A stretch of 22,008 bases of DNA from a virus (IMGVR_UViG_3300017560_000307); one strand, 5' to 3'. Positions 597 to 11,756 are shown, numbered from the stretch's first letter. Made by a program: numbers and translations. The notes: generated from the letters alone by a model not told the origin.

Positions 597-861
597 GATC
601 CCTCCACACATAACTAGAGAAGACAGGTGGGATATCCTGGATAAGCTTACTGCTCTGATTCTGCTGGACTTCGGCGCAAAGTCGGCGGGAGAGCAATTCA
701 ATCCACTCGATCCAGGAGATATGGCACGTCATGGATTGGCGGAGATCGCTGCAGCCTATATCCAGTTCATGGACGTAGATGAAGCGGCTGATCAGATACT
801 GAGTGATTACCAGGGTGGGGACCCAGATATTGAGAATATTGTCCCTCTGGTAGATTCATAA
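583..861 (+). CDS. hypothetical protein
   Basis: ATG at 583 overlaps the end of pseT; acidic helical 92-aa product; start shortened from the ORF track. Confidence 0.65.
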   Translation: MMTSKIPPHITREDRWDILDKLTALILLDFGAKSAGEQFNPLDPGDMARHGLAEIAAAYIQFMDVDEAADQILSDYQGGDPDIENIVPLVDS

Positions 862-1255
862 GTGATACTCCGCCTACAGGCACTAATCTTGCATTAGTTT
901 AGGTGTGGAGTACCGGAGCCAATCGTTGCGTACCCCAGCAAATGTGCCTGGTGCTCCATTTCTCTGTGATTGGGCAAGATAAAGGCGACACTGGTAGGAT
1001 TCCTGCGCTGGGGGATCATCATCCCCATATACTGGGGAGTTCTCATGTCTGTGCACGGCGCGCGTCACCGGAATAGGCATGAGGCAGCGATGGGATCCGG
1101 GGCACGCCGATCAAGCCCCTCGGTGTGGTCTGGATCTCATTGGCTGATCGACAAAGTCCTCACCTTGGGTAAGTCTGATACCATAGGAGTGCCTCTCCTT
1201 CAGTACGGATAGGACGGCCCCGCATCCCCAGACCTAGTCTGGGGATGTCTTTGTC
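862..1255 (+). ncRNA. candidate large structured non-coding RNA (unassigned)
   Basis: No credible CDS. Helices read directly: 906-916/948-958, 919-925/967-973, 933-939/1007-1013, 1022-1027/1033-1038, 1041-1052/1073-1084, 1085-1110/1120-1146, 1156-1160/1211-1215. Many G-U pairs; ends in a terminator. Confidence 0.5.
1223..1255 (+). terminator. intrinsic terminator
   Basis: CATCCCCAGAC-CTA-GTCTGGGGATG perfect 11-bp stem followed by TCTTTGTC. Confidence 0.75.
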
Positions 1256-1676: not shown

Positions 1677-1704
1677 AAGTCGAAAAATCGAAGAGATAGG
1701 ATTG

Positions 1705-1734
1705 GAGGTTGGATGTATATCCAGCCTCTTTTCT
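1705..1734 (+). terminator. intrinsic terminator
   Basis: GAGGTTGGAT-GTAT-ATCCAGCCTC stem followed by TTTTCT. Confidence 0.75.
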
Positions 1735-2686: not shown

Positions 2687-3421
2687 ATGCTTGAACCTAT
2701 ATATATTCCCCGATTCCATAACCAGTTTCCAACAAAGAACCACTACCTGGCGTGGCGGGGATTCGATAGTCTAGGTCATGAAATCCACTTTTTCGAGGAC
2801 AGTCAATTGAGATTTGACTTGCCTCCTGATGCAATTGTTATCGGCGGTGTGGTTGAGGTAGAGAGAGCTTTCAAGAAATTATCCATACAATACTCCGGCC
2901 TAGAGGCGATTCCCGCGGAGTTACTTCCTTTTGCTGGCCGAAGGCTATGGAAGTCAACGATAGATGATGTCATAGATTTGACCTCTGCTGAGTCCTTCCA
3001 GCCAATCTTCGTCAAGCCTCTTCCAGATCAGCACAAACTCTTCCCTGGGAAAGTGATAAGCAATAGATTTGACACCCTTGTTTTTCTCCACGCAGATAGT
3101 GCCACTCCGGTCTTGTGTAGTGAAGTCGTGCAGTTTGGATCTGAGTGGCGAGTGTTCATTCACCACCACCAGATCGTCAATATCAGCCATTACCTCGGAA
3201 CCCCAACTATCTTTCCCGATGTTTTGAAGATCGAGCAAATGATCGACACCTACACAGATCAACCGGTGGCCTTCTCTCTGGACGTCGGTGTGATTGCGAG
3301 TGGCGAGACCCTTCCTGTGGAAGTAAATGACTGTATTGCTTTGGGTGCCTATGGCCTAAGGTCTGTGAGATATGCCCAGATGATTAGGGATAGGTGGAGA
3401 GAGATGAGGAATAACCAATAG
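2687..3421 (+). CDS. ATP-grasp protein, DUF4343/R2K-like
   Basis: IFVKP, SEVVQFGSEWRVF, FSLDVG and LPVEVND motifs typical of stand-alone phage/bacterial DUF4343 ATP-grasp proteins. Confidence 0.8.
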   Translation: MLEPIYIPRFHNQFPTKNHYLAWRGFDSLGHEIHFFEDSQLRFDLPPDAIVIGGVVEVERAFKKLSIQYSGLEAIPAELLPFAGRRLWKSTIDDVIDLTSAESFQPIFVKPLPDQHKLFPGKVISNRFDTLVFLHADSATPVLCSEVVQFGSEWRVFIHHHQIVNISHYLGTPTIFPDVLKIEQMIDTYTDQPVAFSLDVGVIASGETLPVEVNDCIALGAYGLRSVRYAQMIRDRWREMRNNQ

Positions 3422-3487: not shown

Positions 3488-4354
3488 ATGAAACTCTCAT
3501 TGCCCAGTCGGTCTAAAGGCCGACCTAGAAGGAATGCACCTGAGATACGGCGTACTATCATATCTGGCGACTGGCACATCCCAGAAGTAGATATTCCCAC
3601 ATACCGTGCCTTCCTCAATTTCATGCGTCATAAGCGCCCCGACTACCATATAATCAATGGTGATTTTATTGATGCTTATGAGCTCTCGAAGTTCGACAAG
3701 GATCCCGCCCGGCTTGGCCAGACTGCTGAGGAGTTGGGGATGGCGAAGCGAATCTTGGATGAGTTGGCGGAAGCTTCTCCCAACACAATTACCAAATTTC
3801 TCTATGGAAATCACTCTGATCGAATCAGACAGCGAATCCTCGAACATCCAGAGCTGCTTCCGTTTATGACTAAGTCAAAGGACCCCAACTCTGTGTTGGC
3901 TGAGGCCCTCAGCCTAAAAGAGCGGGGTATCGAGTGGTTTTCTTACCCAGATGTGTACAGTCATTTTGGATTTGATATCCAGCACGGTGGCAAAGGGTTA
4001 GGTGGTGGAGGCCAAAACCCTTCCAAGAGTGCTGCGGAGAAGGCTGGGGGGCCGGGTGTGCAGGGGCACTGGCATCGCGAGCGAGTCTGGCAAGTTGTCA
4101 ACCGCAGGACAGACTACAAGTTCTACACGCTTGGTGTTATGTGCCGTCTTAACCCAACCTATCTTCCCTTTAACGACTGGAGCCACTCATTTGGTTACCT
4201 TGAGCAACAGGTGGGGGCCGATCGACATGTATTTCACTCTATCCAAGTCGAAAAGGGGGAGTTCATGTTTGATGGGTACTTCTATAACCAGGATGGCGTA
4301 TTCGAATCTAAGCAGAAAGACTATAAAACCAGGACGAATCAAGGAGATATATGA
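3488..4354 (+). CDS. calcineurin-like metallophosphoesterase
   Basis: All five motifs present: GDWH, NGDFID, GNHS, QHG, GHWHR. Confidence 0.88.
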   Translation: MKLSLPSRSKGRPRRNAPEIRRTIISGDWHIPEVDIPTYRAFLNFMRHKRPDYHIINGDFIDAYELSKFDKDPARLGQTAEELGMAKRILDELAEASPNTITKFLYGNHSDRIRQRILEHPELLPFMTKSKDPNSVLAEALSLKERGIEWFSYPDVYSHFGFDIQHGGKGLGGGGQNPSKSAAEKAGGPGVQGHWHRERVWQVVNRRTDYKFYTLGVMCRLNPTYLPFNDWSHSFGYLEQQVGADRHVFHSIQVEKGEFMFDGYFYNQDGVFESKQKDYKTRTNQGDI

Positions 4355-4979: not shown

Positions 4980-5343
4980 AGTCAGAGAACTTGCCAGTCA
5001 TGAAGTTATTGGCTATGAGGCGTTGATCGACGGCCAATGGAGATACCGAATCGAGGGCTCTCACTGGATGATCGGGGTTTTTACACTTCCCGGGCTCATT
5101 CGTGAGCAGTACACAGGGCTTGTGGATTCGACCAAGAGAATGATCTACGAGTCGGATGTCGTCGAGCACACTCTCTACTCACCGTCAGAGGTCTTCTTTA
5201 GAGATGGCTCATTCTGCACAGACCTAGATCGTCGTATCTATCTGGAGCTGAGTCAAAATAGCTTTGGAATGGAGAGCTATACCGTCATCGGCGATATACA
5301 CCAGAACCCCGAACTCCTAAACCCCACCCATGGAACTCTCTAA
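4957..5343 (+). CDS. YopX family protein
   Basis: IKYR N-terminus, EQYTGLVDSTKRMIYESDVV, and C-terminal VIGDIHQNPELL. Confidence 0.85.
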   Translation: MTRPIKYRVRELASHEVIGYEALIDGQWRYRIEGSHWMIGVFTLPGLIREQYTGLVDSTKRMIYESDVVEHTLYSPSEVFFRDGSFCTDLDRRIYLELSQNSFGMESYTVIGDIHQNPELLNPTHGTL

Positions 5344-5569
5344 GAAACTTCAAAACATCACCCCCACCAAACTCTCATCCGCCTACTGGGTTTGCCGGGA
5401 ATGTGGCGAACACTTCGGCCAGCAGTCAGTCCATACCAAAAACATTCGCTGGATAGGGATGGGATCCGATGAAAGCCCAGACTTGAGAACCCGCTGTTCC
5501 GTCTGTGGCCACCTCGCTCAAGTCACTGAGAAGCGCAACTTCAACATGCTTCAAAAGGGAAAACGCTAG
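5330..5569 (+). CDS. small Zn-finger hypothetical protein
   Basis: CRECG and CSVCG pairs; overlaps the upstream gene. Confidence 0.7.
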   Translation: MELSKKLQNITPTKLSSAYWVCRECGEHFGQQSVHTKNIRWIGMGSDESPDLRTRCSVCGHLAQVTEKRNFNMLQKGKR

Positions 5570-5697
5570 CGGGTCACGCCATAGCCTGAAGCCTCTGCTC
5601 AGCCCTCTCATATCTCTCTATCCTGCGTCATGCGATAGAATCGGCCTCACAACAGTGATAACTCTCAGCCACCCACTGCGGGAATGTAACGGCATTG

Positions 5698-7721: not shown

Positions 7722-8004
7722 GGTCATCAAGGCTGGCGTCTATGGCAACACAGATGATGGCTTCCGCACAGGCTACGATTTCACGCTACTTGACGTCGAC
7801 AATGACTTCAACACACCTGAAGAGGCCTATAAATCCGCTTGGGAATACCTCGAGCATGACGACTTCCTGATTGGCGAGATCGTTGACGACAAGCTGGTCA
7901 ACGTACTCACTGGCCACGGTAAACCCCTATCTGGCTGGCAGGATTCTGATTACCAGTCAGTTGCGAACAGTCTAGAAATCGAGTGGGGGCCTATCAATGT
8001 CTAG
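7714..8004 (+). CDS. hypothetical protein
   Basis: SD GAGGAGG before ATG 7714 (start shortened from track); acidic product. Confidence 0.75.
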   Translation: MFRVIKAGVYGNTDDGFRTGYDFTLLDVDNDFNTPEEAYKSAWEYLEHDDFLIGEIVDDKLVNVLTGHGKPLSGWQDSDYQSVANSLEIEWGPINV

Positions 8005-8410
8005 CCCCATCCGCTTCCGTGCCTTCTACCACGGCCGCATGCTCGACGTCTTCGCCGTGAACCCGATGAACCAGACGGTGTATCTCAGCCATCAGCATCT
8101 ATACGACGAGCCAGGGAACGATGTATTGGTGCCGATCCGGTCGGAGATTGAACCGGACGGGGCTGTGCTAATGCAGTGGACGGGGTTGAGGGCAGTCGAG
8201 GGCACTGATATCTACGACGGCGACATCGTGCGAACCGGTAACAAGAAGTATGGCTATACGTTCGTTGTGTCCTGGGGAACCTTATTTGAGGGCGGTGAAG
8301 ATGGAGACTTCGAGGTGGGCACTGGATTCAACGTTTCCACTCACGATCCAAACACCTATGTCGTTCTCGGCAACGTCCATCAGCACCCAGAACTCATAGG
8401 AGGCAAATGA
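7997..8410 (+). CDS. YopX family protein
   Basis: IRFRAF, LMQWTGL..EGTDIYDGDIV, VLGNVHQHPELI. Confidence 0.88.
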   Translation: MSSPIRFRAFYHGRMLDVFAVNPMNQTVYLSHQHLYDEPGNDVLVPIRSEIEPDGAVLMQWTGLRAVEGTDIYDGDIVRTGNKKYGYTFVVSWGTLFEGGEDGDFEVGTGFNVSTHDPNTYVVLGNVHQHPELIGGK

Positions 8411-11238: not shown

Positions 11239-11599
11239 CCTATCCCACTTCCACAGCATGGACGAGATCAAAGAGTTCTCTGTCGAATGGTCGAAGTATT
11301 GCGCCGATGTTAAATCTGAAGAGAAGGCGCTCATCGCCAAATGGGAGAAGAATAAAAGGGAGGATAGGCTCGAGGCTGAGAAAAAGGCCGAGGAATATAA
11401 CGAATGGGCGAGGACCTTGCATGAAGAGCGTCTCCAGACACTCTTGGGCCGTCTTCTGCAGCCTGAGATAGAGCTTAGATCTGTAGAGTCATTCATGTCC
11501 TCCTGGGCACTCCGCTCATTCCCGCCCAGACTATATCCGTCGACAGAAGGGTTCATCGAATGGCTGGGTACGCAGAAGGAGGCCGATGCGACCAAGTAA
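11228..11599 (+). CDS. coiled-coil paralog family member B
   Basis: MDEIKEFSVEWSKYC...PSTEGFIEWLG; co-linear with member A. Confidence 0.8.
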   Translation: MEFDLSHFHSMDEIKEFSVEWSKYCADVKSEEKALIAKWEKNKREDRLEAEKKAEEYNEWARTLHEERLQTLLGRLLQPEIELRSVESFMSSWALRSFPPRLYPSTEGFIEWLGTQKEADATK

Positions 11600-11756
11600 C
11601 GAAGCCCTTGAGCGATACCTCAACCTCTTCCCCGAGGTTCGCTGGGATCGCTATATCGAGGACGACTGGTCAAAGTGGGAAGATCCTGAGTACTGCAAGC
11701 GTATAGACCGAGCCAACCGGTTGTTTGGTAAATATTGGATGCACCTGTGGGACTAG
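11586..11756 (+). CDS. 56-aa Trp-rich hypothetical protein (MRPSNEALERYLNLFPEVRWDRY...)
   Basis: SD AAGGAGG; overlaps the upstream stop; missed by the ORF track. Confidence 0.65.
   Translation: MRPSNEALERYLNLFPEVRWDRYIEDDWSKWEDPEYCKRIDRANRLFGKYWMHLWD

Follow-up and report, generated by a model that had tools for sequence, protein, structure and literature searches.

Bacterial small RNAs derived from 3′-untranslated regions, such as CpxQ, DapZ and SroC, use the intrinsic terminator of the mRNA, and in the early mRNA of phage T7, RNase III processing hairpins of about two turns of dsRNA, with a characteristic internal loop, are found between expressed genes. According to Chen et al. (2014, PMC4201824), polycistronic precursors give rise to Y RNAs, whose genes share the strand of the Ro60 gene and lie no more than ~4 kb away from it. 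Y RNAs of the YrlA type carry the motif GNCGAA(N0-1)G, or CGAA, near the Ro60-binding stem (PMC4201824, PMC12135203), and in Thermus phage phiLo, Ro60 is accompanied by two Y-like RNAs and associates with the host PNPase in complexes (PMC12135203). Phage Ro60/Y-RNA systems are only starting to be studied.

Here we describe an element in a 22,008-nt stretch of viral DNA (the window), taken from the minus strand of a 74.9-kb record that IMG/VR classifies as a provirus (IMGVR_UViG_3300017560_000307). Positions 862–1255 of the window had been predicted to encode a densely folded, probably non-coding RNA of ~390 nt. We conclude that 862–1255 is most likely a real, very rare, non-coding structured RNA, read from the + strand and belonging to no known family. 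The best explanation, which we hold with somewhat more belief than doubt, is that it represents a selected non-coding RNA cassette, giving rise to a stable RNA from the 3′ end of an operon, that was inserted in one phage lineage and exchanged by recombination.

Position of the element in a Ro60/RNA-repair neighbourhood

The features of the region are listed below in window coordinates. Two variants of the element are referred to, that of the window and that of contigs L009 and L010.

583–861, + strand: w92, a 92-aa gene, the final protein gene of the Ro60/RNA-repair operon, with homologs in relatives by tblastn
884–982, + strand: 5′ domain, an irregular hairpin of 99 nt whose apical loop is rich in C (CCCCAGC, 933–939), recognised by its folding z-score and present in the window-type variant only
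994–1040, + strand: linker with a small hairpin (994–1006) and three G4/C4 segments, from folding and motif reading
1041–1084, + strand: 12-bp hairpin (1041–1052/1073–1084) of the window MFE fold
1085–1146, + strand: rod, a 25-bp hairpin with many G-U pairs and a 9-nt C-rich loop (UCAAGCCCC), folding in both variants
1159–1216, + strand: conserved segment, ~90% identical between the variants in the alignment
1222–1255, + strand: intrinsic terminator (hairpin 1222–1248), a 12-bp stem and 3-nt loop followed by CUUUGUCUG, recognised as a GC-rich hairpin and U-tract on the transcribed strand
1256–1412, + strand: spacer before w87, whose parts 1256–1354 and 1355–1412 differ in conservation
1413–1676, + strand: w87, an 87-aa gene, as an ORF

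The genes of this neighbourhood were assigned from Pfam matches on contig L008, where a TROVE Ro60 gene, a 224-aa gene, an RNA ligase, a polynucleotide kinase-phosphatase (PNKP, PF25109) and w92 follow one another on one strand. The w92 ORF overlaps the PNKP stop, and the element begins at 862, one base past the w92 stop codon. Its predicted location two genes downstream of an RNA-repair enzyme is therefore accurate, PNKP being upstream with one small gene (w92) in between. In L008, the Ro60 gene extends to 113 and the RNA begins at 3277, a distance of ~3.2 kb on the same strand that falls inside the ~4 kb used as a criterion for Y RNAs. Upstream of Ro60 there are three YrlA-like/tRNA-like units, two of which match YrlA (RF02553) with E values of 6e-8 and 2e-7, the third being tRNA-like. 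Both YrlA-like units score below the gathering score (42 and 40 bits compared with 69), and the third is a weak tRNA match. The units are located at positions 3908–4342 of contig L049 (− strand), corresponding to window coordinates of about −3900 to −4340, and an 'ACCU' bulge is seen on the 3′ strand of the stem in all three.

As read in the sequence, a promoter of the form TTGACA-N17-TATAAG precedes the Y-RNA array, and no promoter of this family occurs inside the window before 1740. Given the operon layout, the lack of an internal promoter of this family and the presence of a terminator, we infer that the RNA forms the 3′-terminal part of the Ro60 transcription unit; 862–1255 would thus close an operon that begins with the Y RNAs and Ro60.

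The spacer that separates the element from w87 consists of two parts. Positions 1256–1354 are highly diverged between the variants, with indels, and still belong to the exchanged cassette described below, whereas 1355–1412 is conserved between the variants and carries a ribosome-binding site. A sequence within the conserved part, GTGATAGACT (1363–1372), may be an extended −10 promoter for w87, and the similar sequence GTGCTAGACT precedes the w87 homolog of the relative L012 (about 5275–5284). Both are situated ~40 nt ahead of the start of w87 or of its L012 homolog, and both are unlike the TTGACA-N17-TATAAG family found elsewhere in the phage. The second terminator of the window lies past w87, at 1704–1729. 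Approximately 0.9 kb downstream of the cassette, a 197-aa ORF (2088–2681) gives weak PHROG matches to HNH endonucleases (E ~1e-5); it may be a free-standing homing endonuclease.

Folding of the element and searches for known RNA families

Compared with dinucleotide shuffles, the + strand of 862–1255 folds with an MFE of −170.8 kcal/mol and a z-score of −4.94, a value equalled by none of 100 shuffled sequences; the − strand gives z −3.2. All helices put forward in the original prediction are complementary in the sequence, namely 906–916/948–958 (11 bp), 1041–1052/1073–1084 (12 bp), the rod (1085–1110/1120–1146), 1022–1027/1033–1038, 994–998/1002–1006 and 1156–1160/1211–1215, and most of them are present in the MFE fold of 862–1255. 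Strand asymmetry is more pronounced in the sub-folds: the rod with its closing helix (1077–1165) has a z-score of −3.75 on the + strand versus −0.40 on the − strand, and hairpin 884–982 has −4.32 versus −1.44. The stability confined to the + strand is due to the G-U pairs, and the asymmetry shows that the fold is that of an RNA with the same orientation as the genes, not that of a DNA palindrome, bearing out the earlier argument that the G-U pairs favour RNA. For 1164–1216 the z-score is about 0, and this part has no significant structure. When 299 windows of the 75-kb genome were compared after G+C correction, 200-nt pieces of 862–1255 were among the top 2–4% for folding. Two other 200-nt windows among the 299 beat 862–1255 after this correction (z −4.4 and −3.5); they lie at coordinates of about −8138 and −11638 (L049 about 7940–8139 and 11440–11639), one of them within or beside ORFs and the other in an inter-ORF gap.

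The 5′ hairpin (884–982) is present as a single copy in the phage genome, as judged with covariance model R2. Two 7-bp pairings that start in this part, 919–925/967–973 and 933–939/1007–1013, had been proposed to form pseudoknots, and a competing hairpin (866–871/907–912) had been considered switch-like. All three are complementary in the sequence, but pairings of their lengths are no more than chance gives in 394 nt, the estimated expectation for the 7-bp ones being ~80 with G-U pairs allowed and ~5 with Watson-Crick pairs only. Both 7-bp pairings and the competing hairpin sit in the 5′ part that is missing from the only diverged homolog.

In the linker, the G4/C4 segments are CUGGGGGAU (1008–1016), CAUCCCCA (1019–1026) and CUGGGGA (1032–1038), which are predicted to be able to pair with one another or with the terminator's 5′ arm. 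The 12-bp hairpin that follows has an invariant 3′ strand, UAGGCAUGAGG, and a 5′ strand with two mismatches in L009. As an alternative to this hairpin, UGAGG (1080–1084) can pair with CCUCA (1158–1162) in a 5-bp helix that closes the rod and is invariant in both variants. The conserved segment 1159–1216 includes CCUCACCUU, GUAAGUCUGAUACCAUA and UACGGAUAGG. Since it is conserved yet without significant structure, we regard it as a candidate recognition or seed region; a search of the phage genome for targets complementary to 1164–1216 returned none. A hairpin of the window MFE fold within this segment (1185–1199) was considered as a covarying helix and rejected, as it is broken in L009, and the alifold alternatives at this place are not significant either. 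The terminator had been described as perfect. Its hairpin (1222–1248) is indeed strong, with 7 G-C among 12 bp, but the U-tract CUUUGUCUG is imperfect: the sequence that follows the hairpin, CTTTGTCTGC, is an interrupted tract with 5/8 T.

Scanning the whole window with the 4227 models of Rfam 15 gave no match at the gathering score, and this applies to the ribozyme, riboswitch, 6S and GOLLD/ROOL families. The roles suggested for the RNA at the outset (decoy, sponge, ribozyme or scaffold) are putative, and for the ribozyme role no family gave a match. The element had been said to lack the hallmarks of tRNA, tmRNA, RNase P, SRP RNA and group I/II introns; consistent with this, none of them was matched in Rfam, and ARAGORN was negative for tRNA and tmRNA. 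At the relaxed threshold of E<=10, region 700–1500 returned two chance snoRNA matches only, on the − strand (the wrong strand) and with E ~3, and neither YrlA (RF02553) nor tRNA (RF00005) was among the matches. Direct reading of 862–1255 found no CGAA or GNCGAA motif.

A diverged variant and the distribution of the element

Identical copies of the element were found on four Logan/ENA contigs (L005–L008), and one diverged variant was found on two short contigs, L009 and L010. The contigs derive from sequencing runs SRR7976147/148/238 and SRR31940687/697. Compared with the window, L009/L010 show ~98% identity in w92 and 99% in the w87 protein. The region from about 840 to 1005 is unalignable and comprises ~105 nt in L009 versus ~220 in the window, and hairpin 884–982 is absent from L009/L010. 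Homology starts near 1005–1010, only the 3′ ~245 nt of the element (about 1010–1255) being shared; identity is roughly 65–70% at about 1005–1158 and about 90% at 1159–1255, and identity resumes at ~1355. No indel separates the variants at 1036–1255, in contrast to the many found immediately downstream. The last six residues of w92 are wholly different (IVPLVDS at window 840–861 versus ISFSTSP at L009 1071–1092). As the last ~7 codons of w92 (from about 840) differ, the left recombination boundary lies inside the 3′ end of this gene. Considering that the flanks are nearly identical and the spacer ~30% diverged, the spacer must have been exchanged as a cassette and cannot have diverged in place. 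To judge from these sequences, the partner in this exchange must have been a more distant, unsampled relative.

The divergence of the rod allowed its pairing to be compared between the variants. Twenty of its 62 positions differ between the window and L009/L010 (~32%); the stem is ~36% diverged, and the loop UCAAGCCCC is identical at 8/9 positions. Both versions fold equally well, with a z-score of −3.75 each on the + strand and of −0.4 and −0.6 on the − strand. L009/L010 keep 22/25 rod pairs, and random placement of the same changes keeps 18.5–19.4 (p about 0.04–0.06, which is marginal). Comparison of the homologs revealed compensatory changes: four pairs are changed on both sides between the two distinct sequences, all of them in the rod, whereas slid controls yield 0–2 such double changes. 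In the structure of the two-sequence alignment, which comprises 55 pairs with 97% of cells paired, these 4 compensatory pairs are accompanied by 8 one-sided compatible and 3 broken ones. The terminator stem is identical in both variants, with both substitutions falling in the loop, and the other eight substitutions in 1159–1216 affect unpaired positions or are compatible with two small alifold hairpins, themselves not significant. The whole L009 version does not beat its shuffles (z −1.9 and −0.9); only its rod does. Taken together, these comparisons suggest that pairing in the rod is under selection, a signal that is real but thin and comes from two sequences only.

A spacer of this kind is not present in eight more distant relatives, which were recognised by a PNKP of 60–80% identity or by a w87 homolog. 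In all eight, the w87 homolog starts ~45–95 nt past its upstream neighbour, compared with a 551-nt spacer in the window. By tblastn, this neighbour is a w92 homolog except in L012 and L020; on the short contig L052 the neighbour was not assigned. Since the flanking genes are adjacent in these eight relatives, the 551-nt spacer is an insertion peculiar to the lineage of the window. One relative, L021, has Ro60 and is without an RNA of this kind at the position.

Wider searches gave similar results. Phage GenBank records contained no blastn match to the element, and motif scans of IMG/VR with the conserved 17-mer and with the terminator found none. A two-block motif scan of JGI metagenomes gave one match, which was shown to be due to chance, and the 17-mer matched GTDB genomes 24 times in unrelated taxa, approximately the number expected by chance, none of these matches scoring with the covariance model. 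Protein-anchored searches of IMG/VR (w92, w87, PNKP and a w87 alignment) found no syntenic relatives, and the three PNKP loci recovered at 45% identity had no match to the RNA. With covariance models R1 (core) and R2 (5′ hairpin), a single copy was detected in the phage genome and nothing in the loci of 13 relatives. Judged by these searches, the RNA family is very small or unsampled.

A 390-nt intergenic region after the w87 homolog of L018 was considered as a homolog of the RNA and rejected, as it consists of a terminator-promoter junction followed by unannotated sequence. The position of this junction corresponds to the second terminator of the window (1704–1729). The L018 promoter (5549–5590) is of the TTGACA-N17-TATAAG form and lies right after the terminator past the w87 homolog, in a phage whose PNKP is only ~70% identical. 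Its type is the same as that of the window, so this promoter family is shared across the phage group. In relatives, RlaP (PF10127) and a PolyA_pol/CCA-adding-type nucleotidyltransferase with an HD domain are encoded a few genes downstream of PNKP (L018 7231–8894, L020 6443–8250 and L022 5734–7180), indicating that the RNA-repair neighbourhood is larger there than in the window.

Alternative explanations and comparison with known systems

A less likely reading, though one with some weight, is that the element acts in cis within the operon, mainly as a partial terminator or attenuator and a protector of the mRNA 3′ end, with the rod as a possible RNase III site and no trans-acting product. Such an element would make w87, downstream, independent of the Ro60/repair genes. 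Relatives carry w92 next to w87, and their first terminator-promoter junction is found past w87 (as in L018). In the window, an extra terminator separates the two genes, and its imperfect U-tract makes read-through plausible. Sequence repeats also fit this reading. The hexamers CCCCAG/CTGGGG are clustered, 5 of the 14 occurrences in the 22-kb window falling in 933–1244, and CAUCCCCA occurs as a direct repeat at 1019–1026 and 1223–1230, with CUGGGGA after each. The first copy, with its CUGGGGA, amounts to a shorter second version of the terminator motif at 1019–1038, which points either to duplication of the terminator motif or to alternative pairings by design. In a transcript ending at 1236, the MFE fold and the centroid fold alike pair 1032–1038 with the terminator 5′ arm (1225–1231), while the full transcript forms the terminator instead, a behaviour reminiscent of an attenuator. 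However, in L009 this antiterminator-like pairing is possible as 6 bp and absent from the MFE fold. The element also shows no conserved ligand-binding or leader-peptide feature (its SD-AUG opens 40 codons, compared with 17 in L009) and matches no aptamer family. In addition, a plain hairpin would be enough to terminate transcription, leaving the conserved rod loop and the conserved unstructured 55 nt unexplained, and w87 may own the extended −10 promoter GTGATAGACT, making control by read-through unneeded.

It is doubtful that the element is a second-class Y RNA, co-transcribed with Ro60 and reusing part of the stem (the 'handle') of the three YrlA-like RNAs. A start ~3.2 kb past the Ro60 stop, within the Ro60 unit and on the Ro60 strand, would suit a Y RNA, and the rod loop UCAAGCCCC is pyrimidine-rich (6/9) and conserved in L009. 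The closing helix UGAGG/CCUCA, with the CCUU after it, resembles GUGAG.../...CUCACCUU of Y RNA 1, and CCUCACCUU is an identical 9-mer in Y RNA 1. However, by our estimate a common 9-mer between two stretches of ~400–500 nt is expected ~0.75 times by chance, and the likeness to the three Y RNA stems of the phage is confined to short motifs, the three stems themselves not aligning cleanly. A long hairpin with a pyrimidine-rich loop is a descriptive resemblance and defines no family. Moreover, no lower stem is found at the ends of the RNA, the CGAA and GNCGAA motifs do not occur in 862–1255, RF02553 and tRNA models do not match, and L021 carries Ro60 without such an RNA at the position.

We think it very unlikely that the element is a non-functional relic, i.e. 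what is left of an earlier insertion, for example a decayed moron or mobile element or a duplicated terminator, with hairpins that were inherited and not selected. Its restriction to one narrow lineage, when eight relatives do without it, is what a relic would show, as are the dispensability of the 5′ domain in L009/L010, the marginal pair-retention statistic and the failure to find a homolog in any of the collections searched (phage GenBank, IMG/VR, JGI metagenomes and GTDB). Against this, the rod still folds with a z-score of −3.75 after 32% divergence, on the transcribed strand only and in both variants, and has four compensatory pairs and a conserved loop. Likewise, 1036–1255 is indel-free despite the frequent indels just downstream, and the 3′ 95 nt are 90% conserved within an otherwise fast-changing cassette.

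There is next to no chance that the region is a small protein gene, be it the 80-aa ORF that is open at 970–1212 in the window or the 40-codon ORF from the AUG at 1090, whose ribosome-binding signal (GAGG-N5-AUG, 1081–1092) is kept in both variants: a stop in the L009 frame leaves 17 codons from this AUG, the 37 substitutions between the window and L009 within 970–1212 split 14:9:14 by codon position and thus have no third-position bias, gene callers on the four public contigs called nothing in the gap, the 80-aa product matches no Pfam or PHROG family and its exact sequence is absent from a collection of 15 billion proteins. Conservation of the 970–1212 frame with synonymous variation, which would speak against a non-coding RNA, is therefore not what the variants show, and the 80-aa ORF as a gene is largely refuted on sequence grounds. 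The broken frame, the substitution pattern and the folding all agree with the original view of 862–1255 as probably non-coding.

We therefore return to the preferred reading of a selected RNA cassette, which can be outlined as follows. One long transcript would run from the family promoter through the three YrlA-like Y RNAs, Ro60, the 224-aa gene, RNA ligase, PNKP and w92 into the RNA, and would end, wholly or in part, at the terminator that the RNA itself carries (1222–1248). The RNA is predicted to fold into the variable 5′ hairpin (884–982), the 25-bp rod (1085–1146), the unstructured segment of ~55 nt (1159–1216) and the terminator hairpin. This structured 3′ end may be cut from the mRNA, or outlive it, and accumulate as a stable RNA of ~180–390 nt, in which the rod would provide stability and a surface for protein recognition, and the conserved loop and single-stranded segment would contact a partner, either protein or RNA. 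The most obvious candidate for this partner would be Ro60, whose gene lies 3.2 kb upstream in the shared transcript. A more specific proposal, which we regard as unlikely, is that the rod-and-tail RNA is a fourth, non-tRNA-like Y RNA that has the handle UGAGG/CCUCACCUU in common with the three YrlA-like RNAs and is loaded on the phage Ro60. If so, Y RNAs of both classes would be encoded in one operon with an RNA ligase and PNKP, and exchange of the cassette would retarget Ro60 to other effectors or substrates in different phage strains.

An additional RNA, exchangeable and fast-evolving, that accompanies Ro60, RNA ligase and PNKP on one transcript would offer that machinery a concrete candidate for a new partner or substrate. 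Even in the most modest case, the locus illustrates how a phage operon can acquire a non-coding RNA at its 3′ end through cassette insertion. If the RNA merely terminates or stabilises the transcript, its interest is local and concerns the annotation of this phage group. With two sequence variants, the element is a lead and not a discovery.

How the element relates to described RNAs can now be considered. Among Y RNAs, those of the YrlB/Yrn2 type (Chen et al. 2014, PMC4201824) are alike in lying on the Ro60 strand, within ~4 kb, and in a polycistronic unit that also contains a tRNA-like YrlA. They differ in that a Ro60-binding helix formed from the two ends cannot be drawn for the element, which has no CGAA motif; in size, being 80–130 nt compared with about 180–390 nt; and in position, being next to Ro60, whereas the element is at the far 3′ end of the operon. 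Ro60 binding by the element is putative, and L021 carries Ro60 without the element. With YrlA (RF02553), including the three copies upstream in this phage, the element has in common the transcription unit, the strand and possibly a stem motif (UGAG/CUCA followed by CCUU), but it is without a tRNA-like domain and has no RF02553 or tRNA match at E<=10, whereas the upstream copies match with E ~1e-7.

The large phage-associated RNAs GOLLD, ROOL, HEARO and raiA are likewise hundreds of nucleotides long, densely folded and phage-borne; the element matches no Rfam model and, with its two sequence variants, has a far narrower distribution. The RNase III sites of T7 resemble the rod in being irregular hairpins of ~60 nt and ~25 bp in a polycistronic phage transcript, with pairing kept and sequence not. 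They differ in that the loop sequence of the element is conserved, and cleavage there is putative. The small RNAs derived from 3′-untranslated regions are alike in following directly after a stop codon, having no promoter of their own and carrying a conserved unstructured stretch just upstream of a conserved terminator. The element is much larger than these, has long hairpins and no target complementarity in the phage, and its processing is putative. It is because its layout, a covarying hairpin followed by an unstructured segment and a terminator, resembles those of 3′-UTR-derived small RNAs and Y RNAs that we read the element as a probable stable, processed RNA.
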